This document shows, piece by piece, positions 17,986-64,000 of a stretch of DNA of 64,000 bases; position 1 is the first letter of the stretch; each line of letters starts with the position of its first letter. The notes beneath the pieces were generated by a model, which made no database searches, was not told the DNA's origin, and saw only the letters and a list, made by a program, of their open reading frames with translations. Where the stretch lies: positions 21,338-85,337 of the IMG/VR virus record IMGVR_UViG_3300043410_001823. One strand, given 5' to 3'. The position numbers and the translations under genes are program-made. The stretch is from a virus.

Positions 17986-17988
17986 TGA

Positions 17989-48262: not shown

Positions 48263-48301
48263 AGCAGTATTATTATATCAAATGTTTTTAATGTTTCTCA
48301 G

Positions 48302-49972
48302 TTATTGAGACGCTCGACCTTCACCCTTAGGATTACGTCCAGACACTGTGGCTGGACCATCTGATTGGGTGTTAGTTCTTTGAGCATCTCTAGTTCTGTT
48401 TTTAGAGCCATTAGCCTTTGCATCAGCTGCTGCTCTAGCAGAAAGTTGTAGTGGTTCATCCCCGTGTGGAGCTTGAGGTAGACCCAAAATCTCACGAGCT
48501 TCATTAGGAATCATAATCTGATTCTTAACATAACGTTCCAAGATCTGTGACTGAGCAATCTCATCTGTTAGTGTAAGCTCATTAAACTTAAACTCAAGAA
48601 CATCTGTCTTTTCACGAATGATCTTGTTGACTACCTTTGCTAAATGGTTCTGCTCTGGTCTTGAAACTTGCTCTTTAAATGTTCGATCCTGTGCAAGAGA
48701 TGCAGCAAGTGCTGAGCTATCTGATCCACCAATTTTAGAAATTGGAATCTGATGAGCAATAAATATATCATCACGATTCTGCTTACGATATTCTCTAAAT
48801 GAACCTTCTTGAATTCCATTCTCAATTGGCATCATCTCAAACTCAACCTTGTTGTGATCTCCATCACCAGGTAGAGGAATATAAAGAGTTCTATGTGATT
48901 GTGACTTTAGTCCTGTTTGCAAAAAGCGGAACATCTTGTCTTCAGCATCAGGCGAAAGTTTTGCACCCTTAAGCATGATGATGTAACGTGGAACAGCTTT
49001 ATTTTCAAAATAGTCAATGTTGTATTGTGATGCAAGTTGATCACCAATAAGTGATGGCATTGCAGCAATAATATCTGGAACACCATAATATGTATTTAGT
49101 GGTGAGTATTCCTTAATATGGATAATTTCGTTTGGTCTTGGATCTGCTGTCAATGGATTTGGATTCTTGGCACCAAAGTTACGGAAGTAAACAAGTTTTT
49201 GTCCAATAATTTGTACATATCCATCCTTAAGACGACGCACACGCATTGTTGTAGAAGGTATGTGGCCTACATATCCAATGTCGCCCTTTACTGTTCTACC
49301 AATTTCAATATAACCATTTCCAGTTGCCTGTACATCTGTATAAACTTTTTCCATTGTTTTAATAAAAGAGTCATCATCATTCAATGACTCTATCCACTCA
49401 CGCAACTGAAGTTTTGCTCTTTCAATTCTGTTCCGTGCACGATCAACTTGATCTGAATCTTCGTTATTTTCTAATCTTAGTGCAACAGACTGTGTCGGGG
49501 AAAAATCATATCCAAGACTTACAACATTTTCAACCTTTGCATCAATTGCTGCATGGTTTGCAAACGATGTATCATAAAAATTTGCTAATTCATAAAGATT
49601 GTATGGTGGTGTGATAACATCAAAGATTCCGTAACCATTTCTATAAACAGTTCCAGGATTTAGTTGCTTTGAGTTTGCTCCGACACCAACTGGACTTGCT
49701 TTTGCAGAATCTAAATATGGCCCCATAGTATCTGATTGATACGGACGCATTGCATTCTTTGTATCTACATTGCTAAAACTTGTATAGTCTCCACCAGCTG
49801 CTTTTGTAACGTTTCGTGATGTACGACGTTTAAAATTTGTATCAATTCCGCCTAGATCTTTTAAGTTATCCCAAGATTTAGCAAAAGGATCTTTATCAGC
49901 GAATAAATCTTCACGAGCTGGCTGAGTATTTAAACTAATGTCTACAATTTGACTGTAATCTTCATTATCCAT
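48302..49972 (-). CDS. Portal protein
   Basis: TGNGYIEI, EIIHIK...YYGVP, YFENKAVP and PNEAREILGLP motifs. Confidence 0.9.
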   Translation of the reverse strand: MDNEDYSQIVDISLNTQPAREDLFADKDPFAKSWDNLKDLGGIDTNFKRRTSRNVTKAAGGDYTSFSNVDTKNAMRPYQSDTMGPYLDSAKASPVGVGANSKQLNPGTVYRNGYGIFDVITPPYNLYELANFYDTSFANHAAIDAKVENVVSLGYDFSPTQSVALRLENNEDSDQVDRARNRIERAKLQLREWIESLNDDDSFIKTMEKVYTDVQATGNGYIEIGRTVKGDIGYVGHIPSTTMRVRRLKDGYVQIIGQKLVYFRNFGAKNPNPLTADPRPNEIIHIKEYSPLNTYYGVPDIIAAMPSLIGDQLASQYNIDYFENKAVPRYIIMLKGAKLSPDAEDKMFRFLQTGLKSQSHRTLYIPLPGDGDHNKVEFEMMPIENGIQEGSFREYRKQNRDDIFIAHQIPISKIGGSDSSALAASLAQDRTFKEQVSRPEQNHLAKVVNKIIREKTDVLEFKFNELTLTDEIAQSQILERYVKNQIMIPNEAREILGLPQAPHGDEPLQLSARAAADAKANGSKNRTRDAQRTNTQSDGPATVSGRNPKGEGRASQ

Positions 49973-50375
49973 TGTCATATGCTTCTTTTCCAATTACATT
50001 AACTGTATCTTGAGCAGCCTTCCATGCACCTAGATCATTCATAGAAGGAATAAGTCCTTGCTTTAAACGATCCATTTGCTCTGAGTGCTCTTCTTCTGAA
50101 ATTCTTGTAAGTCCAGGAACAAAGACTGCTTGTCCATCGCCAGGATCTCCATTTCCCATTGCAGCAGCTTTTAACTTTGCAATTTGAGAAAGATCACCTT
50201 TCATTGAAGGAATGTTCAATACACTTCCTTCTCCGTCAGTAAACCAACGTCCGTTAGCCTTCTTATAAACGTATAGACCCCAGTCATAGTGTTTATCTAT
50301 AACCTGGCGTCTTACGTTTCCTACAATAGGCTTACCAGTTTTGCGGTTAATTAGTGGGCTTAGATCCATATCCAT
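49965..50375 (-). CDS. Hypothetical protein upstream of portal
   Basis: ORF overlapping the portal start; ATG lies 6 nt after TGGTATACT. Confidence 0.7.
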   Translation of the reverse strand: MDMDLSPLINRKTGKPIVGNVRRQVIDKHYDWGLYVYKKANGRWFTDGEGSVLNIPSMKGDLSQIAKLKAAAMGNGDPGDGQAVFVPGLTRISEEEHSEQMDRLKQGLIPSMNDLGAWKAAQDTVNVIGKEAYDNG

Positions 50376-50416
50376 ACCATAAGTATACCATAACTAAATG
50401 ATCAGTGACCAAAAAG

Positions 50417-52450
50417 CTATGAAATCTTAATCTCACAAACATCAGTTGTGCAATATGCCTCACCAGCAGCTTCTAGGTTGTCAACTCCATCATATATAGC
50501 AGACCAATCAATCTTCTTGATCTTACCAAGGTATGCCTCGTATTCATCCTTTGTGATTTCTGTATATGGTTGCTGTGGATAAGTTTTATTACCCATTGGT
50601 AGGAAAGACACTGCCTTAAGCTGACCCTCATACATATTGAGTGCGGGTGCAACGAACTTCTTCTCTTCATCTTTGTCAAATGAAAGAGTTACAGAAACAC
50701 CATTATCTGACCAATACTTCTGAGCTGTTGCTGCCAAACCAATCTTTTCAAATAGGCTAACCTGCTTCTCAGAACGCTTATGTCCTGATGCTACTGGGAA
50801 ATATACTACCTGAGTATTTGCTGATACTAGATCTTCTTCAATCTTATACCCCGCTGCTTTAAACAAGTGAAGCATTGGATCTTGATTTCCAAATCGAATA
50901 GCACGAAGATAAAACTCTCCACCTGGCCCCCAGTGAACTCCAGGAGTTGCGCCAGAAAGAAGAGAGACAGACCCTGAAGGCTTAACTGTTGTTACACGAA
51001 CTGACTCACGAACACAAAGCCATTCTGAATATTGATGGTCATACTTACGAATTGTATTATATCCTTCATCCATCCACTCACGTGTTGTTGGAAGGCCATG
51101 CTCATCAGCAAATGCTGCGATACCTGTCAAAGATGTTCCAATACGACGATTGCGTTGCATGATACCATTTGTCTGCTGCCAATGTGTTGGCATAAGGGTT
51201 ACAGTCTTGCCATAAAGATAAGCAAACTTCAACGTCTTGAGGAAGTCCTCCTTGGATTCATGACGATTTAAATGCACCTCTACAAGCGTACATAATTCGT
51301 AACTTTCCAATGGCTGCTCCGCACAAGGGTTGAAGCCCATAATGCGAGTGTCCTTGTAATCAGGAGCATCTGCAAGACGGCCATAATCACGTGCAACATC
51401 AAGCCAAATAAAACCTGGCTCTCCATTATCTGCAATTAAATCTACATAATCTTCATACTTAGTTCCAACTTTTGCAGCAATGGAGTTATTACTCATCCAA
51501 GCCCATCCTGGATTCTTCGGATCATATGAATTTCTATCTGGAAAAACTTCTGGATTCTTAAGATTAATGAATGAATCATCTTCTGGAGTTCCCAGAGCAA
51601 GTGTTGCTGATCTACGAACATTTCCAGAAACAACACATGTTCCAATTAAATTAATAATGTCTACAATTGCTCTGCTATCAAGCATCTCTCCCGCTCTAGA
51701 GCCTACAACAGACCGAATGCGTGTGTGTAGGTCAATCAATGGCTGTGGACCGCTAGCAACGCCACCAAAGCCCTTAATAGGGGCACCCATTGGACGGATA
51801 AGGTCATAGTTAAACTCTTGAATAGGCTGATTTTGACGAAGGAATGAGTTAATCAAAAGACGAACAGATTCCACCCATCCTTCACGAGTATCTGGAATAT
51901 CATAAACAGAAGCTGGCTCTGTTGGAGCAAAAATAGGCATTTGCTTATCTTGTCCAAGAGTATCAAAGCCAACACCAATTCCAAGCATCAAAGCATCCAT
52001 AACCCACGAAAATAGAGCACCTGGATCATTGCGGTCAATGTCACGAGTAGATACCATTGCACAGTTTTGAAGAGAGGCAGAGTTACGCTTCTCCATAGTC
52101 ATTGGAGTACCAAATGCCCATAGGCCTCGTCCTGGTGGTGTCCACTTTAGCTCAAACATTCTCTGAAATGCTTCTTGAGCAGACTTCTGAGCCTTGTTAT
52201 CGTTCCAAGGTAGACGGTTATCTTTAGCGTGGTTCTTTTGAACTGAGTACATACCCTCAATTACACGACGACACACCTCGTACCAACGTTCCTTTGTGCC
52301 ATCATCCTTAACACGAGAATAAGTTCTGATAAATGTAATCTCTCCAAGGGAGTTAGACCCTGCATCCTGGAATCCAAATGGAGCTGCAACTGCAGCATAC
52401 TTATTAACAAAATCTTCAGACAAACGGAAAGAGAAAACACTTTCAGACAT
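50417..52450 (-). CDS. nrdJ: Class II (adenosylcobalamin-dependent) ribonucleotide reductase
   Basis: PPGRGLW, LQNC, GNVRRSA, NPCAEQ, TVKPSG and C-terminal CTTDVC motifs. Confidence 0.93.
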   Translation of the reverse strand: MSESVFSFRLSEDFVNKYAAVAAPFGFQDAGSNSLGEITFIRTYSRVKDDGTKERWYEVCRRVIEGMYSVQKNHAKDNRLPWNDNKAQKSAQEAFQRMFELKWTPPGRGLWAFGTPMTMEKRNSASLQNCAMVSTRDIDRNDPGALFSWVMDALMLGIGVGFDTLGQDKQMPIFAPTEPASVYDIPDTREGWVESVRLLINSFLRQNQPIQEFNYDLIRPMGAPIKGFGGVASGPQPLIDLHTRIRSVVGSRAGEMLDSRAIVDIINLIGTCVVSGNVRRSATLALGTPEDDSFINLKNPEVFPDRNSYDPKNPGWAWMSNNSIAAKVGTKYEDYVDLIADNGEPGFIWLDVARDYGRLADAPDYKDTRIMGFNPCAEQPLESYELCTLVEVHLNRHESKEDFLKTLKFAYLYGKTVTLMPTHWQQTNGIMQRNRRIGTSLTGIAAFADEHGLPTTREWMDEGYNTIRKYDHQYSEWLCVRESVRVTTVKPSGSVSLLSGATPGVHWGPGGEFYLRAIRFGNQDPMLHLFKAAGYKIEEDLVSANTQVVYFPVASGHKRSEKQVSLFEKIGLAATAQKYWSDNGVSVTLSFDKDEEKKFVAPALNMYEGQLKAVSFLPMGNKTYPQQPYTEITKDEYEAYLGKIKKIDWSAIYDGVDNLEAAGEAYCTTDVCEIKIS

Positions 52451-52638
52451 TTTAAACCTCTCAAAAAGTAATAGAGCTTTACAATTTGTAAAGCAGTGTT
52501 AAGTATATCATAAATTTTAAAAGTATTCTACGCTTAAAAACTATATCTAAAGGTTTACATGAGAGTAAGCACTTAGATCTAAACAATCTAGTTAAACATA
52601 AAAGCAAGAGAGCTATTTAAAACTAATAGTGCTAGCTA

Positions 52639-53514
52639 TTAATCTTTATTTTGTTTCTTTAAATGCTTTCTAAATTCTTCTTTATCAATGTGCCTAAAAA
52701 ACTTTCCAGATAGTTCTTCGCCTTCGACGCCAGCACTTTGATATTCTCTAATCTTTTCTTCTGTAAACTGAGGATTAGGAATTAGTGGAATTTTCCATCT
52801 ATCGATATGCTCTTGATCTTTATTTCCTATTTGCTCATAGTACTCTGGGGTGCCATAATTGTAAAAAGTTCCAGGGTTGTCTATTGCCTTTAAAGAAAAA
52901 TTAGAAAAAGCATATCTAATTCCAGAGGTAACTTCTCTAACACCATGAGCATATGGATCAAAAGCACTATGGATAACCAAATCTCCTCTTTCTGGCTTAA
53001 ACTCTAAACACTGTCCAATAACATTGTTATCTTCAGTTTTTAAAGTGCCGTCTGGATTAATGTTTGGATAGAAGATTTCTCCACCTTCGTAATCTCCAAA
53101 ATATGCGACTACCCCATAGTCTAATTCGCAGCAGGTGCTCCATACATCTACTTGAGACAATAGATTACACATTCCTTTACCTGGACTATCGGAGTGAATA
53201 AACATTCCGTTGTCACCAGGCTTTACAGATAGCAGATTATTTTGTGGATGAATGACCCAGTCTGGGCCTATAATGTCTCCAATTTGTTCCCAAACATCTA
53301 TTAACCCATCAACTGTTGGAGTTAATTTTTCTGAATACCAAGAGATTAAAGTATCTTTATATACTTCATTTTGTGTGCCCCTCAAGCCAGACTCAATTTT
53401 TTCAACAAGCTCTGGCTTAATAATATTTTTAAAAAGAAATACTCCACTTTGGGTTCCATATGCATCTACATATGGAGATATTGTAATACAGTCTTCTCTT
53501 TCGTAAAACTTCAT
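52639..53514 (-). CDS. 2OG-Fe(II) oxygenase, prolyl 4-hydroxylase-like
   Basis: HSD...DYEGGEI...HGVREVTSGIRY. Confidence 0.85.
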   Translation of the reverse strand: MKFYEREDCITISPYVDAYGTQSGVFLFKNIIKPELVEKIESGLRGTQNEVYKDTLISWYSEKLTPTVDGLIDVWEQIGDIIGPDWVIHPQNNLLSVKPGDNGMFIHSDSPGKGMCNLLSQVDVWSTCCELDYGVVAYFGDYEGGEIFYPNINPDGTLKTEDNNVIGQCLEFKPERGDLVIHSAFDPYAHGVREVTSGIRYAFSNFSLKAIDNPGTFYNYGTPEYYEQIGNKDQEHIDRWKIPLIPNPQFTEEKIREYQSAGVEGEELSGKFFRHIDKEEFRKHLKKQNKD

Positions 53515-53535
53515 AGTTCCTCCCTCATAAAAATA

Positions 53536-54207
53536 TTATACCACCAATACTGAACAAGGCACTGTATATCTTATTCCAGATATGATTGGTTTTACCTCAT
53601 GAATAAACTCTGAAGTGGCTGGAAACATAACTAAGCTACCTGCTTTAGGCTTAATCATAACGTTGTGGTTTGGAAAATTAATTTCTCCGCCTTCATAGTC
53701 GTCATTTAAATACAAGACCATAGTGAAGGCCAATCCATAACTTCCATCCTGTCCATCTGCGTGTGGACCCATATTTTGACCAACATTCCATTTTTTTATA
53801 TTGATAATGTTTTGATCTAAAGCATATTTGTTTGGGTCTAATCCATGCCCTTTTGTATATCGATCAAAGCACATCTCTAAAGCCATACTTAGGCTATTGC
53901 GTATATACCTGGTTTTTTGCTCTACTCTTTTATTGTCAATTTGAATATTGTTAGATTCTGGAACAATGGTCTTATAGTATCCATATAAAACATTTTTGTC
54001 GTTACTTGCAGTCCATTCCTGCCACTTATTAATTCTTGGATAAGATTCTTCGACTAAATCTATTTCTTCAATAAAATCAACAAGTTCATTAGGACAGCTT
54101 ACAACATTATCCCAATACCAAATATTAGCACTTGGTGCAACTAGATCAAACATTGTATATTGCTTTTTACCTTCCATGTGAGAAAGGTTATTAGACATCA
54201 TACTCAT
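53536..54207 (-). CDS. 2OG-Fe(II) oxygenase, prolyl 4-hydroxylase-like
   Basis: HAD...YLNDDYEGGEINF...HEVKPIISGIRY. Confidence 0.88.
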   Translation of the reverse strand: MSMMSNNLSHMEGKKQYTMFDLVAPSANIWYWDNVVSCPNELVDFIEEIDLVEESYPRINKWQEWTASNDKNVLYGYYKTIVPESNNIQIDNKRVEQKTRYIRNSLSMALEMCFDRYTKGHGLDPNKYALDQNIINIKKWNVGQNMGPHADGQDGSYGLAFTMVLYLNDDYEGGEINFPNHNVMIKPKAGSLVMFPATSEFIHEVKPIISGIRYTVPCSVLVV

Positions 54208-54959
54208 TACTCAACCTCTTCGGCAAGATACTTATTTCCTTCTGGACTAATTCTATATCCACTTTCTCTGATATCTGCCCAGTCTTTTTGTTGATCTTTT
54301 TGCATAGCTCTAACCTCTGCCAATTCCTTGGCCCACTTTTCTCTAATATCTGCTGGATAATCAGACTCTTCTCTGTCATCCCAGAATGAACCTAGTGTGT
54401 ACCTAGCGCCATGTTTAATTACTGACACCTCATGCATATTTTTATGTCCGCCATGAAAAATAGCAAACATTCCAGCTTTAGGCTGTATAGATATATCTTG
54501 TTCTCCATAATTTGCTTTAAACTTTAATAATCCACCTTCAAAATCACTGTTCAAATACATAAAGCCAGCATATCTACTTCTAGTAAAGGCACCCATAACT
54601 CCATTGTTATCTGAATTGTCTGAGTGTAGCGGAGCAAATGCTCCTGGTAGCCACCTCTGTACGTGAAAACTAATTCTAGACATTTTCTCTGGAGAAACCC
54701 CAGCGACATTTGCTGCTGCTTCCCTATATCTAGTCATCATTGTAGACATCCAATTACTAGGTAAGCCAAATTGCTCTAAAATAGGGTCATTATCTTCTGG
54801 GTATCCAGCAGAGTATGATTCGTAGAAAGATATTGGCTTCCAGTAATCTGGATCTCTTTCAGCATAAGCTAAAATCATGTTTAAAGTTTTTTCTGATTCT
54901 TCTGGTGTCAAAAAATCATCATAAATATGAATATCCTCAGATATTTTATTTAGCTTCAT
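54207..54959 (-). CDS. 2OG-Fe(II) oxygenase, prolyl 4-hydroxylase-like
   Basis: HSD...YLNSDFEGG...HEVSVIKHGARY. Confidence 0.88.
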   Translation of the reverse strand: MKLNKISEDIHIYDDFLTPEESEKTLNMILAYAERDPDYWKPISFYESYSAGYPEDNDPILEQFGLPSNWMSTMMTRYREAAANVAGVSPEKMSRISFHVQRWLPGAFAPLHSDNSDNNGVMGAFTRSRYAGFMYLNSDFEGGLLKFKANYGEQDISIQPKAGMFAIFHGGHKNMHEVSVIKHGARYTLGSFWDDREESDYPADIREKWAKELAEVRAMQKDQQKDWADIRESGYRISPEGNKYLAEEVE

Positions 54960-55800
54960 TTGATTCTCTTTCCATCTTTTCAGCATGCATCTGCTCGTAA
55001 GGAATAATCTTTTGATCTTTTAGATATACCATATTGCGCTTATCTTCATAGTCAATTCTTTCTTCTTCCATCTTTGCCCATCGATATGCACCATGCTTCT
55101 TTTGGTTAGCTAGCCATTCAGCGCTTCCATCGTAATCAAACATAACAAAGTTTCTAATAAAGAATTTATTTCCATCTGGAATGGTTTTAACGCCATGGAA
55201 GAATGGTGCTCCTGAAGGAAATACAACAAGGTCTCCTGCCTTTGGCTTATGATTTACAATGTCTCCATTAATATAAAATTCAATATCTCCACCATTATAA
55301 TTATCATTAATATAAAAAGTACATGTGGTATGGAATTTTTCTCCAGGCATGTCTCTTTGAGAAATAATATAGTCAGTATGATATTGCATTGTCATATTAT
55401 TTTTTAAATTATCAATTTTATTGAAATACTTACACCAAGACTGGCCACTATATCTAGCACCCTCTGGAATCTCAATTCCTGTGTGCTTAAAGTAATGAGA
55501 TATTGCCTTATCATAAGATATAGCAATTTCCTCATACAGAGATTTCTCTTCTTCGAAAATTGGACCAAGTTCAGCTTGAGCTAACTCAGTTCCAAACTTT
55601 GCTTGCGTATATGTTCCAAAATGTGCCCAAGGATCCCAGGTCTTAAAGAAGTATTTTCCAGCACTAGATTCTTCAGAACGCATCATAATTTCATATGCCT
55701 TATCTGGATTGCTTAACATGTTTCGATAAACGATAACTCCTGGATAAAGTTCTTCCCAGTCTAGTGCATCTATATCATCTCTAAGGTTTAAACTATGCAT
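54946..55800 (-). CDS. 2OG-Fe(II) oxygenase, prolyl 4-hydroxylase-like
   Basis: HTD...YINDNYNGGDI...HGVKTIPDGNKF. Confidence 0.85.
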   Translation of the reverse strand: MHSLNLRDDIDALDWEELYPGVIVYRNMLSNPDKAYEIMMRSEESSAGKYFFKTWDPWAHFGTYTQAKFGTELAQAELGPIFEEEKSLYEEIAISYDKAISHYFKHTGIEIPEGARYSGQSWCKYFNKIDNLKNNMTMQYHTDYIISQRDMPGEKFHTTCTFYINDNYNGGDIEFYINGDIVNHKPKAGDLVVFPSGAPFFHGVKTIPDGNKFFIRNFVMFDYDGSAEWLANQKKHGAYRWAKMEEERIDYEDKRNMVYLKDQKIIPYEQMHAEKMERESNEAK

Positions 55801-56549
55801 TATTGATTCTCTTTCTGTTCGAATATCTTCTTATATTCTGGATTATCAAATCCACCAATATAATCTTGTGGAGGTTGCTTTTCTCCTGTATGTCTTTTAA
55901 TTGTCCAAAAAAATGGAGAAGTAAATCTATTTCCTGACTTAATTGGTCTTACCCCGTGGGCATAATGTCTATCACCAGGGAAGAAGTAGGCAGATCTTGG
56001 TTTTGGCTTAAACTCAATGCCATGTTGAGGGAAATAAAGCTCTCCTCCCTCGTAATCATCATTAAAATAAAATAAGGACGCTATGTCATACCAAGGAAAA
56101 TCATTTGGTCTTCCAGTCTCTTCTCCTACCCAAAACTCTTTATCTGCATGCGGTTCTTGCCTTGCACCAACTGGCCATTTTACAATTGCTGGTCCAGTTT
56201 CTTTTGCATCGACATTAAAAAATTTATCTACTTCTATTTTTAATCTATTAATCATGCTGTATATAAGTTCTAGAATTGATGGGTCTGAAGCCATCAATGA
56301 GTTGTATGTACAAACTCTATCTGCCCAAATATTATGATCATACAAAACTAGTCCATCTTCATCTATATGTGTTTCTGTTACATCCCAAATTTTATTATTA
56401 AGTGCAAAACTCATAAGTCTTTGCTGCTCTTCTTCTGTTAAGAAGTTTTCAAGCTCTACAATATTGTCTTCAGAATTACCAAAGAACCCTGATGGAGTTA
56501 TGGACTTTGGTGCGTTATTCTTATTCCATGCATTACTTGTTTCGTTCAT
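55800..56549 (-). CDS. 2OG-Fe(II) oxygenase, prolyl 4-hydroxylase-like
   Basis: HAD...YFNDDYEGGELYF...HGVRPIKSGNRF. Confidence 0.88.
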   Translation of the reverse strand: MNETSNAWNKNNAPKSITPSGFFGNSEDNIVELENFLTEEEQQRLMSFALNNKIWDVTETHIDEDGLVLYDHNIWADRVCTYNSLMASDPSILELIYSMINRLKIEVDKFFNVDAKETGPAIVKWPVGARQEPHADKEFWVGEETGRPNDFPWYDIASLFYFNDDYEGGELYFPQHGIEFKPKPRSAYFFPGDRHYAHGVRPIKSGNRFTSPFFWTIKRHTGEKQPPQDYIGGFDNPEYKKIFEQKENQ

Positions 56550-57163
56550 TCTGACTCCTTAACAACATATGGTGTAATTTCATAAGAACTAAAAGGCTTT
56601 TCATATACATAGACAGACGTTAGGTATCTACTTCCACTGCTTACTAATTTAACTCCATGATTAAAATTGCTAGGGAAAATAACAACTGATCCTGCCTTTG
56701 GCTTAATTGAAACTGAGTGATCTGGAAAATATATTTCTCCGCCCTGATAGTTATCATTAAAATAAAGCAATAAAGTTATGTATGGTTTTACATTAACCCC
56801 ATTTTCACTAACAAAGCCATAACCATCGTTATGAGATGACATTTCTGATCCCTCACAGTATTCTCTAATAGGTATTCCACCCAGATCAATATGATCTACA
56901 GAGATTGAAAGCGATAATTCAGATATATAGTCTTGTAAAGAATCTCTAAACACATCTAAAATTTCTTCATGTTCTTTGTCTTCTGATGAAACGTAGGCGC
57001 TATTGCCAACAATGGTGCTGCCACCATTTAGATTTGTATATGGTTGCCAAAAATATGATTTAAGTGATTGTAGCAAATTATCAGCTTGTAGACATGCGCC
57101 ATCTATTTCCCAAATTTTTTCTGCATGTCTGACAATGGTTCTAGAATTTCCCATATCGCTCAT
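56546..57163 (-). CDS. 2OG-Fe(II) oxygenase, prolyl 4-hydroxylase-like
   Basis: HND...YFNDNYQGGEIYF...HGVKLVSSGSRY; GGAGG RBS before ATG 57163. Confidence 0.88.
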   Translation of the reverse strand: MSDMGNSRTIVRHAEKIWEIDGACLQADNLLQSLKSYFWQPYTNLNGGSTIVGNSAYVSSEDKEHEEILDVFRDSLQDYISELSLSISVDHIDLGGIPIREYCEGSEMSSHNDGYGFVSENGVNVKPYITLLLYFNDNYQGGEIYFPDHSVSIKPKAGSVVIFPSNFNHGVKLVSSGSRYLTSVYVYEKPFSSYEITPYVVKESE

Positions 57164-57192
57164 TTTTGCCTCCAATTATATGATATCATATT

Positions 57193-57894
57193 TTATAAAT
57201 CGTTTATTACATTTAAGTTAATTTTTTTGACCTGGTGGTCTCCAAGTTTATTATTTTTATGATCTACGGCATTTCTGTAAAAGTCTGCCCATTTGCCTAG
57301 CTTATTTATTTCAAAAATAGTATTAGAATAGTCATTCATGTCTACTTTGCTTCTTTTCATATTTGATGCTGAATCAAAATTAATAGACGAGTCTTGAATT
57401 ATTTCTAAATCAATTGGCAAAATAGCAGCTATTGGCGTATTTGCTTTAATAATAATTTCAGTTTTTGGCTTTAATATTCTACAAGCAATTGGAAGCTCTC
57501 CGTCATACCAGGATGTGCTCATTAAGGTTGTAAATGTTTGAAAATTATCATTAAAGTGGTTTGGAACTGGCATAGTTAAAAGTGTTACATTTTTAGGTGT
57601 CTCAAACTTTATACCTGTGTGAAAGCTTATTGTTGCATTTGCTCTTCCAGTGTATGCATATTTTTCACCAGATATTATCTTTACATGATCTGAGGTAGAA
57701 TCAGATATTCCATCCCAAGTAAAGACTATGTCTTCTGGAAATGATACTTCCCAGCCTAATTTGTTTGCCAGACTTACTGGAAAACAGTGATAAGCATGAG
57801 CGTTATAGGTTTCATCCATCCAATCTCTATTAATTGATAATGGAGCAATATTTGCAAAACCTGCTTGTACCCTATAAGCTTTTATTTCATACAT
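57193..57894 (-). CDS. DUF6065-like protein
   Basis: RDWMDET...HAYHCFPVSLANKLGW motif and a C-terminal FYRNAVD. Confidence 0.6.
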   Translation of the reverse strand: MYEIKAYRVQAGFANIAPLSINRDWMDETYNAHAYHCFPVSLANKLGWEVSFPEDIVFTWDGISDSTSDHVKIISGEKYAYTGRANATISFHTGIKFETPKNVTLLTMPVPNHFNDNFQTFTTLMSTSWYDGELPIACRILKPKTEIIIKANTPIAAILPIDLEIIQDSSINFDSASNMKRSKVDMNDYSNTIFEINKLGKWADFYRNAVDHKNNKLGDHQVKKINLNVINDL

Positions 57895-57898
57895 ATCG

Positions 57899-58597
57899 TT
57901 ACATGCTTTGCGATGATTGATTTTGTACCCAGCGTTGTCTCATCTGCATAAACTCATCATTATGAGCATGATCATTATAATCAAGCATGGTAACAACTGA
58001 GTACTTAGTTCCAGTTTCTACTGGCAAAGCTATATGAGAAAATAAAAACGTAGATGGGAAAATGTATAGATCTCCAGCTTGAGGCTTAATTTCTAATCCT
58101 AACTTAGGAAACTTTAAGCCACCACCTGTATAATCATCATTTGGATACCCTACCAAAGAAACGGTAGCACTATAAGAAAATCCATCATCAGCATGTTCTT
58201 GGAAATGCTGTCCTGGTATATATCTTATACAATTCATTACTTCCCAATAATCCATTCTGACAGAATATCTAGTGCAATAGTCTGAAACTGGACCATCCTG
58301 TGCTCTCTTTAGATCTTTCCATAAAGAATCTACAAGTACTTCAGTATTATTTCTAGGATACTTTATATCTGTTACTTTGATATCATGACAATCACGATAA
58401 TCTGGTCTCTTATCTGCATATCCAACAAAACCAAAGGTCCACTTAAAAGATTTTGCATCATCTTTTTCTGCAGAAATACCAATTTCATCTAGTCTATTGA
58501 TAATATCTAAATCTTTAGTAAATACATTTCTATAAACCCAAACACCAGGGAAAAGCTCTTCTGCATTTGTCCAGTTTTTATTTTCTTGATTAATCAT
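57899..58597 (-). CDS. 2OG-Fe(II) oxygenase, prolyl 4-hydroxylase-like
   Basis: RY..GQHFQEHAD...NDDYTGGGL...HIALPVETGTKY. Confidence 0.88.
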   Translation of the reverse strand: MINQENKNWTNAEELFPGVWVYRNVFTKDLDIINRLDEIGISAEKDDAKSFKWTFGFVGYADKRPDYRDCHDIKVTDIKYPRNNTEVLVDSLWKDLKRAQDGPVSDYCTRYSVRMDYWEVMNCIRYIPGQHFQEHADDGFSYSATVSLVGYPNDDYTGGGLKFPKLGLEIKPQAGDLYIFPSTFLFSHIALPVETGTKYSVVTMLDYNDHAHNDEFMQMRQRWVQNQSSQSM

Positions 58598-58631
58598 TGA
58601 ATACCCCTATCCACCTTTATATTATATCATG

Positions 58632-59219
58632 TCATCCATTGTAAGTCAACATTTCATCTGGAAGAATATCAACGATCATATGGATTCTGTCTATATCGCT
58701 TCCGTTTAAAACTGAATGTGGCAACTGATTATTAATCTCATACCCTATACCTTCTTTCATATGAATAGTATTATCCATAACTGTAAATGTAACGTGCTCG
58801 TGAGTAATTAACGGTATATGAACTCTTCTTGAGTAATGAAGTAATGCTCCTCCATCAGTATGCTTGTATACTTCTGAGTTGGCTTTTAGCTTAATAATTT
58901 CACATCTAATTACTTTGCCACTATAATATTTTTCTAAAAAATCAAAGATTTTTTGAGCTTGATTCTGAGCTAACTTTGTTTTAAAAGTATTTATATAATC
59001 TGTTTGAATTGGTGTTCCTGGAATCCACTCATAATCTGTTTCAAATAGCCTAAACATAAAGGTATTCATATGGGTTGTACCTTTTTCTTGCCTTGATGTA
59101 TTTAAAAACCATTCATCAGAATAAGTAGATACTTCTTGCTTAATAGCATCAATATTAAAAGATCCCAGATCTTGTATGGTCCATTTAGTATCTTTTTTTA
59201 CTCTTTTGTACATACTCAT
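58632..59219 (-). CDS. Aspartyl/asparaginyl beta-hydroxylase-like 2OG-Fe(II) oxygenase
   Basis: HTD...RVHIPLIT...EINNQLPHSVLN...RIHMIVD. Confidence 0.82.
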   Translation of the reverse strand: MSMYKRVKKDTKWTIQDLGSFNIDAIKQEVSTYSDEWFLNTSRQEKGTTHMNTFMFRLFETDYEWIPGTPIQTDYINTFKTKLAQNQAQKIFDFLEKYYSGKVIRCEIIKLKANSEVYKHTDGGALLHYSRRVHIPLITHEHVTFTVMDNTIHMKEGIGYEINNQLPHSVLNGSDIDRIHMIVDILPDEMLTYNG

Positions 59220-59889
59220 ATACCCCTAAATCTATATGATTCAATTCTAGCACTCTATTTTTTTGCTCTTTTGTAAGCTCAATGCCTATATTAGGAGACA
59301 TGTTAGATTTGTCTGTATACTTAAATGTAGAAAATCCAAAATGTTTAATTAAGGCTTTGTTAAAATCTTCAATAAAAATATTATGATTATCTAATGAATA
59401 GCAATAAAATTTATCAACATTTTCAAGCACTTTATCTATATCCAATGAATAATCCTCTATATACCAGTTATTCATTATTGCATCTTGAAAATATTTATGA
59501 TTATCATTAAATTTTTCAATATTAGTGCTTCCAGTTAAAAATTTTGACTGAACATTAGATTGAACATCAGACTGTGGTCCATAAAGCCAGTCATCTAATC
59601 TTCTTTCTGCTTCTTCACCCATTCTTACTAATCCTGTAGTATATTTAAAATAACTAATAAAACGGTCTACTGGATTTCTAACAATACAAAATACATCTGG
59701 ATTACTCATATACTTAAGTGGCATGATTCCAAAATGACCACCAACAACCTTGCTATTTCTTAGTACATCTGGTTCTATTTTAGTTCTATTGGATATAAAA
59801 TGTGATACCCCACCAGATATTAGATGGGGTAAAACATTTTGCTTAACGTATATTCCTGATGTTCTTGGTATATGTAAATGATAAATCAT
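59185..59889 (-). CDS. Sulfotransferase-family protein
   Basis: HLHIPRTSG (5'-PSB-like), GHF, IVRNPVDRFISYF (3'-PB) and N..D..VYE motifs. Confidence 0.75.
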   Translation of the reverse strand: MIYHLHIPRTSGIYVKQNVLPHLISGGVSHFISNRTKIEPDVLRNSKVVGGHFGIMPLKYMSNPDVFCIVRNPVDRFISYFKYTTGLVRMGEEAERRLDDWLYGPQSDVQSNVQSKFLTGSTNIEKFNDNHKYFQDAIMNNWYIEDYSLDIDKVLENVDKFYCYSLDNHNIFIEDFNKALIKHFGFSTFKYTDKSNMSPNIGIELTKEQKNRVLELNHIDLGVYEYVQKSKKRY

Positions 59890-61242
59890 TTACGCAAAAC
59901 CCTTTTTATTGTGAACAACAAGGCTGCCAGCAATAAGAAGGTCATTTGGAGAAGCATCAAATTCAAAGACTCTACGCTTTTCATCAATTAGTGTAATGTC
60001 GTTGATAACAACTTCAGAGAATGTTCCGTCTTCTTGTCTTTCAACAAGGACATCTCCAATTTCCAAAGCACCAGTTGTTCCAAAGAAATATACATCATTT
60101 TTCTTAGTAAGAACTGTTTGTTCAAGAGAGAATCTCTTATTGCTATCACCGTTAACGATCATGGTTACATCCTTAACGTGCTCAATAATGTTTGTAATTG
60201 AAGCTTCTGCATCTGCAATTCCTTCAATTGAAGAGTTTTGCCATGTATATGGATCAAAGGCAAATTCATCTTCAAGTCCTGGAACTTTTACAGATAAAAC
60301 CTTGTCTCCAATTACCATATCTTTTGCTTTCTTCCAGGCAATTGTGTTATTGTCAAGAAGAATTGCAATTGGAGTATCCTCATCAATACAGAATAGAGGT
60401 GGTGCGAAGAACCCTGGAGGTGCAAAGAACACTGGAGGTGCAAAGAACACTGGAGGTGCAAAGAATCCTGGTGGTGCGAAGAATACAGGTGGTGCGAAGA
60501 ATACAGGTGGTGCAAAGAATCCTGGAGGTGCAAAGAACCCTGGAGGTGCGAAGAACCCTGGAGGTGCAAAGAACCCTGGTGGGAAGAATGGTGGGAAGAA
60601 TGGTGGCAATGTAGTTACAGTATTTGTATTTGCTGAAACTAGAGATCTTCCATTAGCATTATCCGCATATACATTGTAATATTGCGATGTGTTTGCAGTA
60701 TCGTTAATTGTAATGCTTGTAGATGTTGTATTTCCAGACGTGCCATCTGATCCAACTACATAATAGTTTGAAATAGCTTTTCCACCATTTGCTGGTGCTG
60801 TCCAAGATATTACATCTGAATTAACAGCTGCAGTAGCAGATGGTGATTGTGGAGCCTGTGGAACTGTTGTAGCAGTTACAGAACCAGAAACTGTTGCTAC
60901 TCCGCTACCAAATGTATTTTTAGGAGTTATCGTAAATGTATATGAAACACCAGATGCTAATCCCTGAAAGGTATAGGATGTAGCTGGTGCTGCAACATTT
61001 GCTGTATATGTAGATGGTGTTGTTGTAATATCGTAAGATGTAGCAGCAGTTGATGTTGAAGGAACCGCCCATGATATTGTAACAGATCCACCAGTACCTG
61101 CAGCCGAAGCTGCAGATGTGGTGTTTGCTGTTGCTAAATAAGGTCTTGCAGTTCCAACATCTGTAACTGTTACTCCAGTTACTGCCAATGGCGGAATTGT
61201 TGAGTCCTGACCATCACTAAATCTACCCTGTAATTTTGCCAT
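59890..61242 (-). CDS. FN3-domain protein with Pro/Phe tandem repeat and C-terminal Hint (intein-like) domain
   Basis: Two FN3-like domains (ISWAVP...YTFQGL..G.SYTF; ISWTAPANGG..I..Y), then (PPFF)2(PP[G/V]FFA)10PPLF, then CIDEDT...IGDKVL...LEIGDVL...LLIAGSLVVHN-KKGFA. Confidence 0.85.
   Translation of the reverse strand: MAKLQGRFSDGQDSTIPPLAVTGVTVTDVGTARPYLATANTTSAASAAGTGGSVTISWAVPSTSTAATSYDITTTPSTYTANVAAPATSYTFQGLASGVSYTFTITPKNTFGSGVATVSGSVTATTVPQAPQSPSATAAVNSDVISWTAPANGGKAISNYYVVGSDGTSGNTTSTSITINDTANTSQYYNVYADNANGRSLVSANTNTVTTLPPFFPPFFPPGFFAPPGFFAPPGFFAPPGFFAPPVFFAPPVFFAPPGFFAPPVFFAPPVFFAPPGFFAPPLFCIDEDTPIAILLDNNTIAWKKAKDMVIGDKVLSVKVPGLEDEFAFDPYTWQNSSIEGIADAEASITNIIEHVKDVTMIVNGDSNKRFSLEQTVLTKKNDVYFFGTTGALEIGDVLVERQEDGTFSEVVINDITLIDEKRRVFEFDASPNDLLIAGSLVVHNKKGFA
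60391..60606 (-). repeat. Coding tandem repeat: ten 18-bp units (60403-60582) plus two 12-bp units (60583-60606) and a partial unit
   Basis: Plus-strand units of type TGC(A/G)AAGAA(CCC/TCC/CAC/TAC)(T/A)GG(A/T)GG encode PP[G/V]FFA. GAAGAATGGTGG x2 encodes PPFF. Confidence 0.95.
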
Positions 61243-61265
61243 AGTATTTTATATACCTTTCACTC

Positions 61266-63950
61266 TTAGTTAGTTAGGTCTCCGAAGATAGCCCATGTAT
61301 TTGCTGCCACCTTTAGTGCGGTAGCTACAGAGAACTGTCCTCTGAACTTTAATGCCATTGTTCCATTAACTGAAGCTGCCTGGAAGGTTACTCCAGATCC
61401 AGCTACGAAACTTGTTTGTCCTGCACCGATTTGCTGGAAATCTAATGAAGCTCCGACTGGATAGCTATATGTTGAATCTGGTGCAATTGTAATTGTGTTT
61501 GCAGAACCAACATTCATTCTTACAAAAGAATCCTTAACATATGAAGATCCAAGTGTAATGGATGCAGTTGGTGTGTTGATTGGAGTTAAGGATGGTGTTC
61601 CAGCTAGTGTCTGTGTTCCATCTGAGAAAACAATTCCAGATGATGGAGTTACAGTTGTAGCTTCAAGAGAACCTAAAACAAGTGTATCCTTTGTCCATGT
61701 AGTAAAATCGATTGTATCTGAAGGCTCTGTAGTTACTCCAGAGAACAACTTCCACTTTCCATCAGAAGCATCACGGGTTAAACCTGTGTGCTGATATGTT
61801 CCATCACTAAAGTGACCAACAATACCAAGATCCTTAGAATTTGCTGAATTACCAGTTCCGATATAGATAAGTGGGTCAGTGACTTCAAGATTTTGTGAAG
61901 AAACTGTAGTTGTTGTTCCATTAACAGTCAAATTGCCTGAAAGTGTAAGACTTGTACCTGAAACAGCACCTGTAAATGTTGCTCCTGAAAGCGAAGCCTT
62001 TGCATCAAGTGCTGTTTGTGTAGCAGTTGAGACTGGCTTATCGGCATCTGCTGTATTGTCAACGTTGCCAAGACCAACCATGCTCTTTGTAATACCAGAA
62101 ACTGTCCCAGTAAAGGTTGGTGAAGCAATTGGTGCCTTTGCATCAATATTTGTTTGTAGTGCACTACCAGCATTATCTACGTATGTCTTAGTAGCAAGTG
62201 CTGCAGTGTCTGCAATTCCGTGAACATTTGTGCTTGAAGATGTGTGAGATGATAGGTCTGCATCGAGAGCCTTATCATCAAGTTGTGTTTGAATTGCAGA
62301 GGTTACACCATTTACATATGAAAGTTCTGTTCCTGAAACATCACCGATTGATGTTGTTGAAGGCAAAACTACGCTTCCAGTAAAGGTTGGGGCATCTGTA
62401 GACGCTTTTGTTCCAAGAGCATTCCAAATATCTGTATTTTGTTCTTGAAGTATATCTGTTGTTACTAATGCTGATGTATCTGCAATACCGTGAACATTGA
62501 GAGACTGTGCGGTATGGGCATTAAAATCTGAAACATCCGCCTTTGATGCAAGATCTGAAAGATTAACCTTTAATGCTAGTGCTGACTCTACATCTGTTGC
62601 TACTGCCTTGAGGTCTAACTGATCCTGAATATTGCCAGTAATTCCTGCAAGTGTTCCTAGTTCAAATGGATTAATTACATGATTTCCATCTGTAACTGTA
62701 ATAGTAGGATTTTCAAGAGTTGCATCTACTGATGGAGCCTTTGTATCAAATTGTTCTTGAATAGTGTAAGCCTTATTAATTCCATTTAGTGTTTGAAGTT
62801 CGCCGTTATCTACATTTCCGATAATAGCTGAGGTTGCTTCAATTTGTCCAACTTCCAAATTTCCCTTTGTGTATGTTGTAAAATCAATTGATCCTGATGG
62901 TTCTGGAACTACGCCCTCAAAAATTTTCCAAGTTCCGCTTGATGAGTCTTTAACAAATCCTGCGTGAGCATAACCACTTCCATCCTTATATCCACCAACA
63001 AATCCAAGATCTGGATTAAGAGCAGCCTTTGATTCAGCTGATCCTCCAGATGTGTATGTTGCGGTTGATGTATTTGCAAGTGTAAAGCTTGTTTCTGTAA
63101 CAGATAAAATTTCTGACCAATCTGTATTTAGTCCAGATGGAGTAATTCCTGTTACGACTGCAATATTGCCAGCAACAAATAGTGAATCCGCATTATCGAT
63201 AGTATATGTTACGGATGTGCCATTTCCAACTGCTGCAGTAATTGGTTTTGTAACTGCTTCATTAAGATAAATGATATTATCTGTGATTGATAAATTGGTT
63301 GAATTTACAATCGACTGTGTACCTGCAACTGTAAGATTTCCTTCAATGATTACGTTATTTGCTGTAAGATTATTGTTAACTCCAATAGAGTCTGCCTGAA
63401 GATCTGCTGCTGTTACAAGATTTATAAACGTTGGTGAATCTTTTGGAGCATATACATCTGCAACATCGCTGACCTTTGCAAAAACGCTTCCATCAACATC
63501 AAATTGAGATGTACCTAAATTCCAAGATAGTCCATATCCAGCTAGTTCTGATTCATTAACTGCTGCACCTGCTACAGCACCATCAACATATGAAATAGTT
63601 GCAAGTTGAGCTGTATCTTCAATTCCATGTACGTTAGTTGTTGATGATGTATGATCAGATAGATTAGTTGCAACTGTATTTATGAAATCTGGATCATCTC
63701 CAAGTGCTGCTGCTAATTCATTTAATGTATTTAGAAGATCTGGAGCTCCATCTACAAGGCTGTCAATTGCAGATGCTGCATCAGTAAAATATGTTAGATC
63801 TACCCAGTGATTAACACCATCACCGATCTTAAACTTATTTGTATCGGATTCAAATCCAATTTCACCAGCAGCTAGGATAGGCCCGCTACCATTATTTACA
63901 GAAATCCACTGCGCTGCAGTTCCTCTGCGCTGTTGCATTCTTGTTGCCAT
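61266..63950 (-). CDS. Tail fibre/virion appendage protein with Mtd_N-type N-terminal domain and internal repeats
   Basis: MQQRRGTAAQW...LAAGEIGFESDTNKFKIGDG, APDLLNTLNELAAALGDD, VGLGNVDNTAD, KAP..SPTFTG repeats; ends in W..FGDL. Confidence 0.8.
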   Translation of the reverse strand: MATRMQQRRGTAAQWISVNNGSGPILAAGEIGFESDTNKFKIGDGVNHWVDLTYFTDAASAIDSLVDGAPDLLNTLNELAAALGDDPDFINTVATNLSDHTSSTTNVHGIEDTAQLATISYVDGAVAGAAVNESELAGYGLSWNLGTSQFDVDGSVFAKVSDVADVYAPKDSPTFINLVTAADLQADSIGVNNNLTANNVIIEGNLTVAGTQSIVNSTNLSITDNIIYLNEAVTKPITAAVGNGTSVTYTIDNADSLFVAGNIAVVTGITPSGLNTDWSEILSVTETSFTLANTSTATYTSGGSAESKAALNPDLGFVGGYKDGSGYAHAGFVKDSSSGTWKIFEGVVPEPSGSIDFTTYTKGNLEVGQIEATSAIIGNVDNGELQTLNGINKAYTIQEQFDTKAPSVDATLENPTITVTDGNHVINPFELGTLAGITGNIQDQLDLKAVATDVESALALKVNLSDLASKADVSDFNAHTAQSLNVHGIADTSALVTTDILQEQNTDIWNALGTKASTDAPTFTGSVVLPSTTSIGDVSGTELSYVNGVTSAIQTQLDDKALDADLSSHTSSSTNVHGIADTAALATKTYVDNAGSALQTNIDAKAPIASPTFTGTVSGITKSMVGLGNVDNTADADKPVSTATQTALDAKASLSGATFTGAVSGTSLTLSGNLTVNGTTTTVSSQNLEVTDPLIYIGTGNSANSKDLGIVGHFSDGTYQHTGLTRDASDGKWKLFSGVTTEPSDTIDFTTWTKDTLVLGSLEATTVTPSSGIVFSDGTQTLAGTPSLTPINTPTASITLGSSYVKDSFVRMNVGSANTITIAPDSTYSYPVGASLDFQQIGAGQTSFVAGSGVTFQAASVNGTMALKFRGQFSVATALKVAANTWAIFGDLTN

Positions 63951-63983
63951 TATATCTCCTTGCTAGTAGATTGGAATAGTGCT

Positions 63984-63992: not shown

Positions 63993-64000
63993 TTATTTTA

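Follow-up and report, generated by a model that had tools for sequence, protein, structure and literature searches.

What do the 2-oxoglutarate (2OG)-Fe(II) oxygenases encoded by phages act on? Their genes are among the commonest of aquatic viromes that still lack an explanation. They are routinely tallied as auxiliary metabolic genes (AMGs; parts of PMC3037559 and PMC11561400). The question takes concrete form in the stretch of DNA analyzed here (the window), which is the final 64 kb (64,000 nucleotides, positions 21,338 to 85,337) of the linear viral contig IMGVR_UViG_3300043410_001823 from IMG/VR (85,337 bp; CheckV completeness, 79%). In this window, the gene for a protein with a Pro/Phe repeat, P0001, is followed by a row of genes for oxygenases and other enzymes. 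By sequence comparison with related loci, the repeat protein and the oxygenase array belong together as a conserved unit that follows the tail-fiber gene. Arrays were found only where the repeat, hereafter the polymer, is rich in Pro; thus, the polymer is the likeliest candidate target of the array.

P0001 has 450 residues and comprises two tandem FN3 domains, the Pro/Phe polymer, and a C-terminal Hint domain (Table 1), an anatomy already proposed in a preliminary description of this DNA, whose open reading frames (ORFs) and coordinates also held. The second FN3 domain is not called by Pfam; it was revealed by a profile search against PDB and by an AlphaFold2 model. The profile of the N-terminal part of the family matched the FN3 tandems of titin and fibronectin in PDB. 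P0001 had no match in PHROG. The polymer consists of 26 Pro, 25 Phe, 10 Ala, 6 Gly, 4 Val, and 1 Leu; this count confirms the initial claim of 26 Pro and 25 Phe without a hydroxyl side chain, as there is no Ser, Thr, or Tyr. In its DNA, Tandem Repeats Finder detected 9.9 copies of an 18-bp period (60401-60579). AlphaFold2, run with 40 relatives, produced two confident FN3 domains, a confident, all-beta C-terminal domain, and a polymer with a predicted local distance difference test (pLDDT) score below 50, which is therefore predicted to be disordered or not to fold alone.

We detected at least 194 relatives of P0001 in the protein database. What they have in common is the conserved N-terminal FN3 pair (~35-60% identity); beyond it, the length of the Pro/aromatic repeat differs greatly among members, and so does the end of the protein. 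This end can be a Hint domain of the HN type, another domain of ~150-200 residues starting with Cys, a short Cys-rich knot, or just a few residues (...TFGSRFIRSY); among the 133 distinct members that we tabulated, 52 have no C-terminal module and 22 have an HN-type Hint domain. The same repeat with the same C-terminal module was found on two to three different proteins per genome, including fiber-region proteins of 800-1100 residues, which suggests concerted evolution or within-genome exchange of the repeat cassette. The target of the enzymes would therefore be the cassette and not one gene: the gene pointed out as the substrate in the preliminary description is real, but it is not the single carrier of its repeat. 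Recurrence of repeat and module is seen, for example, in loci L007 (2310-4694), L011 (532-3747), L182 (11154-12122), and L192 (646-1359, 8223-9188, and 10001-10978); some of these proteins, 800-1100 residues long, have Cys-rich and PATPP tracts.

The pairing of repeat and array was assessed in the genomic neighborhoods of relatives of three divergent family members, where ORFs from six-frame translations were labeled by jackhmmer with the window proteins. Of the resulting 204 forward loci, 158 were evaluable (at least 6 kb of downstream sequence or reaching the portal gene), and 46 with too little downstream sequence were dropped. Where the repeat contained at least three Pro-Pro dipeptides (Pro fraction of the tract, ~0.3-0.46), 4-10 oxygenase genes lay just downstream in 108 of 108 loci. 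Single-Pro repeats (FSFTPFGF, FSFTPYSF, etc.; Pro fraction, 0.1-0.2), in contrast, were followed in all 45 loci by no (14 loci), one (13 loci), or two (18 loci) oxygenases, and all four loci without a repeat had none. One borderline locus, whose short tract has two Pro-Pro dipeptides, had five. A fourth query contributed 19 new loci: two with Pro-Pro repeats and nine oxygenases each, and 17 with neither Pro-Pro nor oxygenases (11 single-Pro repeats of at least 19 residues and six tracts of 10-13 residues). In total, all 111 Pro-Pro loci among the 177 evaluable forward loci, the borderline locus included, had 4-10 oxygenases and all 66 others had 0-2, a positive outcome for the test suggested in the preliminary description, which asked whether arrays accompany the repeat and change with its composition. 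A reverse search from OXY3, the most conserved oxygenase of the array, returned 76 new loci. In 57 of these, the gene immediately upstream of the array encodes a Pro-Pro repeat protein; another 18 had less than 1.5 kb of upstream sequence and cannot be judged, and one was cut by the locus end. Thus, no array without a Pro-Pro repeat protein was seen among the 58 reverse loci with room for one (57 paired, one cut). Arrays lacking the repeat protein, or the reverse, had been named at the outset as evidence that would count against a link; none were found in the 177 forward and 58 reverse loci.

Other parts of the repeat protein follow the array less closely. Hint domains, other long C-terminal modules, and absent modules occur with both repeat types, whereas Cys-rich knots are nearly restricted to the Pro-Pro type (19 versus 1). 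These comparisons indicate that the array tracks the chemistry of the repeat and not other parts of the protein. The two repeat types also differ in encoded hydroxyl side chains: the median content of Ser, Thr, and Tyr is 7.3% in 102 distinct Pro-Pro tracts versus 20.2% in 20 single-Pro tracts (relatedness ignored). Within the Pro-Pro loci, tracts rich in Phe-Pro-Phe have a median of seven oxygenases versus five for tracts with Pro-Pro only (Spearman 0.71, uncorrected).

Whole genomes were compared in a set of ten complete or near-complete relatives, five of the Pro-Pro type and five of the single-Pro type. The former contain 12, 11, 9, 8, and 12 matches to Pfam PF13640 and the latter 5, 6, 7, 4, and 4, a background of other oxygenases being present in both. 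BLAST identified orthologs of OXY1 (48-68% identity), DUF6065 (42-58%), OXY3 (55-81%), and OXY5 (39-53%) in all five Pro-Pro genomes, whereas the five single-Pro genomes had only paralogs with 23-34% identity or nothing for these four proteins and, specifically, no ortholog-grade match to DUF6065. Thus, it is a specific orthologous set that tracks the Pro-Pro repeat.

The pair of repeat and array also moves. On the portal tree (54 rows, IQ-TREE quick mode, portals shorter than 400 residues excluded; a FastTree version was also made), the trait requires four changes, and a single Pro-Pro/array clade is rejected by the approximately unbiased (AU) test (p 5.5e-43). The window groups with single-Pro genomes by its portal (66-71% identity) and by its ribonucleotide reductase (RNR; 82-83%). 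Its OXY3, on the other hand, has 81% identity to the OXY3 of genomes with much more distant portals (46-49%) and RNRs (27-28%), and only 55-56% to the OXY3 of Pro-Pro genomes of its own backbone. These opposite patterns imply that the repeat-plus-array block was transferred between phage backbones. The RNRs of the two backbone groups, 27-28% identical, are placed differently relative to the array (50417-52450 in the window versus genomes G001, G002, and G004). Recombination has occurred at both edges of the repeat, as seen in swaps of the end module on one side and insertions of the sulfotransferase and AspH-like genes on the other, and still no Pro-Pro repeat was parted from its array. The N-domain tree requires six changes (FastTree, 154 rows) or 12 changes (IQ-TREE quick mode, 166 rows). 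N-domain trees omit rows with repeats shorter than 13-15 residues or with fewer than 150 residues before the repeat, and the IQ-TREE and AU trees of this domain also exclude L121 and L124, two 1550-residue proteins that sit on very long branches.

As initially described, the repeat gene is followed, in abutting or overlapping arrangement, by a sulfotransferase gene, an AspH-like gene, a DUF6065 gene, and seven genes for oxygenases of the prolyl 4-hydroxylase (P4H) type, OXY1 to OXY7. The Pfam model 2OG-FeII_Oxy_3 matched six of these seven above its curated cut-off, the seventh being OXY7. The HxD...H motif is present in all eight oxygenases, with HxD at the Pfam-matched position in all seven of the P4H type; inspection of the translations located the distal His and the Arg/Lys, and a family alignment was used for OXY1 only, where H135, D137, H188, and K198 (the Fe triad and the basic 2OG residue) are invariant in 14 orthologs. 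The closest solved relatives are weak but consistent matches, namely LH3, bacterial and viral P4Hs, P3H1, and PiuC-type hydroxylases. In PDB, OXY1 weakly matched the lysyl hydroxylase LH3 and the P4H of B. anthracis, OXY3 weakly matched PiuC and prolyl 3-hydroxylase 1 (P3H1), and OXY6 matched a PKHD-type hydroxylase, the B. anthracis P4H, and the P4H of Paramecium bursaria chlorella virus 1 (PBCV-1; 5c5t, E 0.021). By this weak likeness, the P4H-type enzymes are putative peptidyl-proline hydroxylases. OXY1 and OXY3 also match phrog_3531, termed "ferrochelatase," and phrog_2297 and phrog_274, termed "DNA endonuclease," over the 2OG domain, and the homologous ORF of phage S-T4 is a "ferrochelatase" in RefSeq and "hypothetical" in GenBank. 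These labels may be carried-over misannotations, which may inflate the reported co-occurrence of ferrochelatases and oxygenases.

Not all ten genes described as following the repeat gene belong to the conserved unit. OXY1, DUF6065, and OXY3 to OXY6 form its core, whereas the sulfotransferase, the AspH-like protein, OXY2, and OXY7 proved to be accessory. Median identity is 80.5% for OXY3 (49 loci), 57.5% for OXY4 (46 loci), and 52.6% for OXY5 (47 loci); the best matches of OXY2 in related loci are only 31-39% identical. OXY7 belongs to phrog_61 (E 3.2e-5) and has 57% identical orthologs in two related complete genomes, in one of which (G001) the gene is on the opposite strand, far from the array. 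The best matches of the accessory proteins in a related complete genome lie elsewhere than in the array (OXY7, 57%; OXY2, 40%; AspH-like, 37%; sulfotransferase, 24%); at such identities, the last three are distant relatives only, whereas OXY7 has a clear ortholog. DUF6065 is mostly viral, and neither a sequence search of PDB nor a literature search returned, respectively, a match or a paper bearing its name. Its fusions in ESM Atlas, with Cupin_8/JmjC_2 in a 73-member bacterial cluster and with 2OG-FeII_Oxy_3 in an 84-member viral one, tie it to oxygenases. In several loci (L168, L174, L175, and L181), OXY1-like and DUF6065 genes alternate as pairs.

Table 1. Coordinates of the repeat protein, the array, and other features of the window (positions count from the first nucleotide of the window unless stated otherwise)
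Feature	Positions	Strand	Evidence and remarks
Tail-fiber protein, 894 aa, Mtd_N-type N-terminus	61266-63950	-	Pfam Mtd_N E 1.6e-11; PHROGs tail fiber and minor tail
Repeat protein P0001, 450 aa	59890-61242	-	FN3-FN3, Pro/Phe polymer, Hint
Two tandem FN3 domains, residues ~17-210	60613-61194	-	Pfam fn3 E 3.3e-10; AlphaFold2 pLDDT >90
Pro/Phe polymer, residues 213-284	60391-60606	-	(PPFF)2(PP[G/V]FFA)10PPLF
Hint domain, residues 285-450	59893-60390	-	A-type bacterial intein-like character; Cys285 directly after polymer; ends VVHN, then KKGFA
Sulfotransferase, 234 aa, accessory	59185-59889	-	Sulfotransfer_1/2 at threshold: 22.6 and 21.8 bits, cut-off 22
AspH-like, Asp_Arg_Hydrox-family 2OG oxygenase, 195 aa, accessory	58632-59219	-	Pfam E 4.9e-11; HTD at residue 120
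OXY1, P4H-type 2OG-Fe(II) oxygenase, core	57899-58597	-	Pfam 2OG-FeII_Oxy_3 E 2.6e-10
DUF6065 protein, core	57193-57894	-	Pfam PF19541 E 7.2e-28
OXY2, 2OG-Fe(II) oxygenase, accessory	56546-57175	-	Pfam E 9.3e-11; HND at residue 115
OXY3, most conserved core oxygenase	55800-56549	-	Pfam E 1e-6; HAD at residue 134
OXY4, core oxygenase	54946-55800	-	Pfam E 3.1e-8; HTD at residue 141
OXY5, core oxygenase	54207-54986	-	Pfam E 7.5e-9; HSD at residue 121
OXY6, core oxygenase	53536-54207	-	Pfam E 4.8e-12; HAD at residue 149
OXY7, divergent 2OG oxygenase, accessory	52639-53514	-	Pfam below cut-off: 20.2 versus 27 bits, E 1.2e-3; HSD at residue 107
RNR, class II	50417-52450		188-nt gap after OXY7; portal beyond
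GlcNAc glycosyltransferase (PF11397)	22506-23408	-	E 1.8e-34; behind 989-aa tail-region protein; 30 kb away
WhiB-family gene	18248-18421 of the same contig, outside the window		E 2.6e-13

Foldseek of the whole-protein model returned FN3 tandem matches only; therefore, the C-terminal domain was folded alone. Although Pfam alone is weak here (E 0.017), a profile of 15 relatives had the bacterial intein-like (BIL) domain 2lwy as its first match (E 5.4e-7), with mini-inteins also matched, the AlphaFold2 model of the separate domain reached a pLDDT of 91.3, and Foldseek matched this model to inteins and mini-inteins, BIL and BIL2 domains, and Hedgehog autoprocessing domains (E 3.6e-7 and weaker), with TMq values of 0.52-0.69 in all listed rows except the domain-swapped 5bkh (0.36). 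Together, these results establish that the Hint domain of the preliminary description is real. Its residues C1, T6, G28, N80, H160, and N161 are invariant in the 15 relatives, and C285, H444, and N445 (P0001 numbering) are invariant in 40. A Lys follows the terminal His-Asn, hence there is no +1 nucleophile, and the 166-residue domain has no insert and no homing endonuclease. In our own alignment of block B, the window has SLEQ in place of TxxH (His to Gln), and L182 and L197 have TETH. According to part of one paper (PMC7765530), A-type BIL domains cleave at their ends without splicing and are sited in variable proteins; the residues and the setting of the window's domain fit this description. 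The Hint cap most likely cleaves itself off between Phe284 and Cys285, as predicted from these residues, and the mature protein would therefore end in the polymer, as relatives that lack the Hint domain do from the start.

The sulfotransferase was matched by Pfam just at threshold, but a profile of 13 orthologs matched heparan-sulfate 6-O-sulfotransferase (5t03, E 8.5e-10), and 12 of the 13 matched Sulfotransfer_2. Its invariant residues are P8 and G12, and R71, P73, and S79, which we take to be the 5'-phosphosulfate-binding (5'-PSB) and 3'-phosphate-binding (3'-PB) motifs for 3'-phosphoadenosine 5'-phosphosulfate (PAPS). By these sequence features, the protein is a member of the PAPS-dependent sulfotransferase family. 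It stands directly behind the repeat protein in a subset of loci only, and the sulfotransferase/AspH pair is inserted between the repeat gene and OXY1 in some loci only. The best solved relative of the AspH-like protein is L-proline cis-4-hydroxylase (4p7w, E 7.3e-6). In G001, the best sulfotransferase (24%) and AspH-family (37%) matches lie ~40 kb from the repeat gene; these are distant relatives and not clear orthologs. G001 also has a second cluster (14718-19322, L206) of four OXY2-like oxygenases far from any repeat protein, and sulfotransferase-like and AspH-family genes are found just upstream of it. The GlcNAc (N-acetylglucosamine) transferase of the window was considered as a partner of the array, as family PF11397 includes a hydroxyproline GlcNAc-transferase. 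It was rejected: the family is present in none of the five complete Pro-Pro genomes and in two of the five single-Pro genomes.

The gene order is tail fiber, P0001, sulfotransferase, AspH-like, OXY1, DUF6065, OXY2 to OXY7, RNR, and portal, and a tail-fiber homolog precedes the repeat protein in related loci too. The tail-fiber gene is separated from the repeat gene by 23 nt, and the stop codon of the latter abuts the start of the sulfotransferase gene (0 nt; minus strand, ...GCG TAA ATG ATT). Within the block, spacing varies between an overlap of 41 nt and a gap of 34 nt: there are overlaps between the sulfotransferase and AspH-like genes (35 nt), OXY2 and OXY3 (4 nt), OXY3 and OXY4 (1 nt), OXY4 and OXY5 (41 nt), and OXY5 and OXY6 (1 nt), and gaps between the AspH-like gene and OXY1 (34 nt), OXY1 and DUF6065 (4 nt), DUF6065 and OXY2 (17 nt), and OXY6 and OXY7 (21 nt). 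A scan of 50000-64000 for promoters and terminators gave counts at chance level (52 found versus 53 expected and 8 versus 7.5, respectively). A near-consensus promoter-like site (TTGACT-17-TATAAT with TG; 58621-58649, minus strand) lies just ahead of OXY1, and a hairpin with a T-run (52476-52494, minus strand) lies between OXY7 and RNR; sites of both kinds occur at chance level in the region.

The portal of the window is ~45% identical to Streptomyces phage portals, and the contig carries a WhiB-family gene, both of which point to a phage of aquatic Actinobacteria. The contig most likely belongs to an uncultured freshwater-lake phage with a host in this group. Phages of 'Ca. Nanopelagicales' have been isolated (PMC10202952). 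The only sequencing runs that cover nearly the whole stretch come from a single freshwater metagenome sample, possibly the one from which it derives. Contigs from a wastewater run, X3, are 99% identical to parts of the array and ~94-95% identical to the RNR/portal region (window 48000-64000), with other parts of the array uncovered; therefore, close relatives of this phage exist outside the source sample. No RNA run was listed as holding the region, X3 being labeled RNA-Seq and judged to be probably DNA. No match was found in INPHARED by megablast with the region or tblastn with the repeat protein, a result that shows little, as the low-complexity filter was on and records of the phage's own genome may have been excluded.

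We propose that the unit is a late-gene module for making a chemically tailored, fiber-associated protein. The repeat protein would be translated together with the tail-fiber genes, and its Hint domain would cut itself off between Phe284 and Cys285, leaving the polymer as the C-terminal end. Inside the infected cell, OXY1, DUF6065, and OXY3 to OXY6 would hydroxylate prolines of the polymer and would act equally on the polymer carried by other fiber-region proteins. In this way, the tract, whose encoded residues provide hardly any hydroxyl groups, would acquire them, and the AspH-family enzyme and the sulfotransferase could be optional add-ons that extend this chemistry. The fiber-region position and the FN3 domains fit the initial view of the product as a virion appendage, in which case it would be found in the virion. 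We give this putative combination, proline hydroxylation of the polymer cassette on fiber-region proteins plus removal of the Hint cap by itself, about an even chance of being correct.

Several points weigh against this proposal. The counts overstate the independent evidence, since many loci closely duplicate one another and some contigs occur in both the forward and the reverse sets. The genes of the repeat protein and the array are adjacent, so inheritance as a block could produce their pairing without a functional link. Their common orientation is in itself uninformative, because the minus strand carries every long, non-shadow ORF of the entire window. On the N-domain tree, only five contrasts fall on supported branches, all of them concordant (sign test p 0.0625), and the hypothesis that the single-Pro type arose once survives the AU test (p 0.061); therefore, we do not claim many independent switches on this tree. 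The comparative case that emerges from the sequences is good but not closed. Further 2OG oxygenases are encoded elsewhere: genomes that lack any Pro-Pro repeat have 4-7 of them, Pro-Pro genomes have additional clusters, and this enzyme family must therefore have other roles as well. Solved hydroxylases are matched only weakly by sequence (E 5e-4 to 0.06), and the need for 5-10 different enzymes on so simple a polymer is unexplained. As for the PBCV-1 enzyme, the one viral precedent that has been studied, its role is described as unknown, and hydroxyproline as undetectable in virion proteins, in part of a review (PMC7019647). Finally, AG-345-L05, AG-345-E08, and S-T4 (up to 20 kb of flank) have one to three distant homologs and no ORF with a Pro/aromatic repeat; an extension of the proposal to cyanophage oxygenases is thus unsupported by these three loci, which are too few for a conclusion.

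The adjacency of the genes leads to the strongest competing explanation, which we consider unlikely but serious: the array may be a cargo island of the moron/AMG type, occupying a variable slot between the fiber genes and the portal and paired with the repeat through adjacency and block transfer. Its enzymes do belong to phrog_61, filed under "moron, auxiliary metabolic gene and host takeover," and parts of the literature treat phage 2OG oxygenases as AMGs (PMC3037559, PMC11561400). The scattered oxygenases elsewhere in these genomes, the mobility of accessory members (an OXY7 ortholog and distant sulfotransferase and AspH-like relatives), and the single origin that the N-domain tree does not reject also speak for cargo. 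However, no separation was seen in 177 forward and 58 reverse evaluable loci despite recombination at both ends of the repeat. In addition, five complete single-Pro genomes that share the backbone lack orthologs of the array, the number of oxygenases varies with the Pro context of the repeat, and the nearest solved relatives are protein hydroxylases.

A bolder version of our own proposal is that the fiber polymer is built post-translationally: a battery of regio-specific hydroxylases would turn the almost pure Pro/Phe tract into a hydroxyproline-rich aromatic material, with additions by the sulfotransferase in some phages, and the Hint thioester would ligate its end to a virion or surface molecule. 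We regard this as distinctly unlikely, and Hint-mediated transfer instead of plain cleavage is pure conjecture.

The same co-variation would also arise if the array served some other target, required only where a Pro-Pro polymer is produced, such as another virion protein or the host translation apparatus. Ribosomes stall at Pro-Pro runs, and there are 2OG oxygenases that hydroxylate elongation factors or proteins of the ribosome; moreover, the matches of OXY3 and OXY6 to PiuC/PKHD-type hydroxylases, whose function is unsettled, are roughly as good as those to collagen hydroxylases. Nothing points to such a target, however, and several paralogs with different N-terminal parts would be unexpected for a single host target, which makes this explanation quite improbable. 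The layout of a repetitive core, a self-processing domain, and adjacent enzymes had prompted the initial comparison with clusters for ribosomally synthesized and post-translationally modified peptides, in which Hint would release a small peptide tailored by the ten genes, but this is hardly credible, as cleavage at Cys285 would free a 284-residue protein with two folded FN3 domains, many homologs lack Hint (52 of 133 have no module and only 22 have the HN type), the same cassette sits on 800-1100-residue fiber-region proteins, and there is no leader or recognition element, protease, or exporter.

The proposed hydroxylation of the polymer would have consequences beyond this phage. The module places one substrate gene beside its candidate enzymes, which makes for a concrete and cheap test. 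If the proposal is true, a subset of orphan oxygenases gains a target, tailed phages chemically tailor their own fiber proteins, and part of the AMG tally shifts to virion construction; if ligation of the fiber polymer also occurs, phages would encode protein chemistry of a new class. A Pro/Phe polymer with a removable Hint cap would also be of interest as a new fiber material and a self-processing tag. Our literature searches, which did not cover supplementary files, found no paper linking phage oxygenase arrays to a Pro/aromatic repeat or to a Hint-capped fiber protein, and a search for terms within PMC6802176 found no description of a repeat-plus-array system.

Each component has known counterparts. 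The array shares its PHROG (phrog_61) and Pfam family with the 2OG oxygenases of cyanophages and pelagiphages. Those enzymes are discussed as AMG or DNA-repair candidates of unknown role, present in multiple copies per genome, in parts of PMC3037559 and PMC11561400. They are assigned to metabolism or DNA repair with no named substrate, whereas here an orthologous set is tied to the repeat of a fiber protein. The Hint domain resembles the A-type BIL of Clostridium thermocellum (2lwy) in its Cys1, C-terminal His-Asn, lack of a +1 nucleophile, and variable host protein. It differs in being a terminal cap, with five residues after it, behind a Pro/Phe polymer on phage fiber-region proteins, and in having SLEQ instead of TxxH in block B, although some relatives keep TETH. 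BIL2 domains of the Tetrahymena BUBL loci (6y75 and 6tmm) are also among the best fold matches (TMq, 0.61-0.67). In BUBL loci, the Hint thioester hands the upstream polypeptide to another molecule, a precedent for transfer; unlike them, the repeat protein has no ubiquitin-like domain.

The nearest solved sequence relatives of the oxygenases, LH3 (8zgc and 6fxk), P3H1 (8k0e), and the Bacillus anthracis P4H (5hv0 and 3itq), share the HxD...H motif and are protein hydroxylases acting on Pro-rich repeats. The collagen-type enzymes act on Gly-X-Y, whereas the repeats here are PPxFFA or PFFPPFF, with no triple-helix signature and a tract predicted to be disordered. In extensins and Skp1, Pro is hydroxylated and the hydroxyl is then built upon: Skp1 is modified by a P4H and then by a GlcNAc transferase of PF11397, and extensins undergo hydroxyproline-based tailoring. 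The phage also encodes a PF11397 transferase, but it lies 30 kb off and does not track the arrays, leaving this link unsupported. A hydroxylated aromatic fiber polymer would follow a logic comparable to that of mussel-foot adhesive proteins or extensins. The P4H of PBCV-1 (5c5t) comes closest as a precedent; it is among the PDB matches of OXY6 and acts on Pro-rich peptide substrates (Eriksson et al. 1999, as cited in part of PMC7019647). It is a single enzyme of an algal virus with no adjoining substrate gene, whereas in the tailed phage described here and its relatives, 5-10 paralogs and DUF6065 adjoin the gene for a Pro/Phe polymer.

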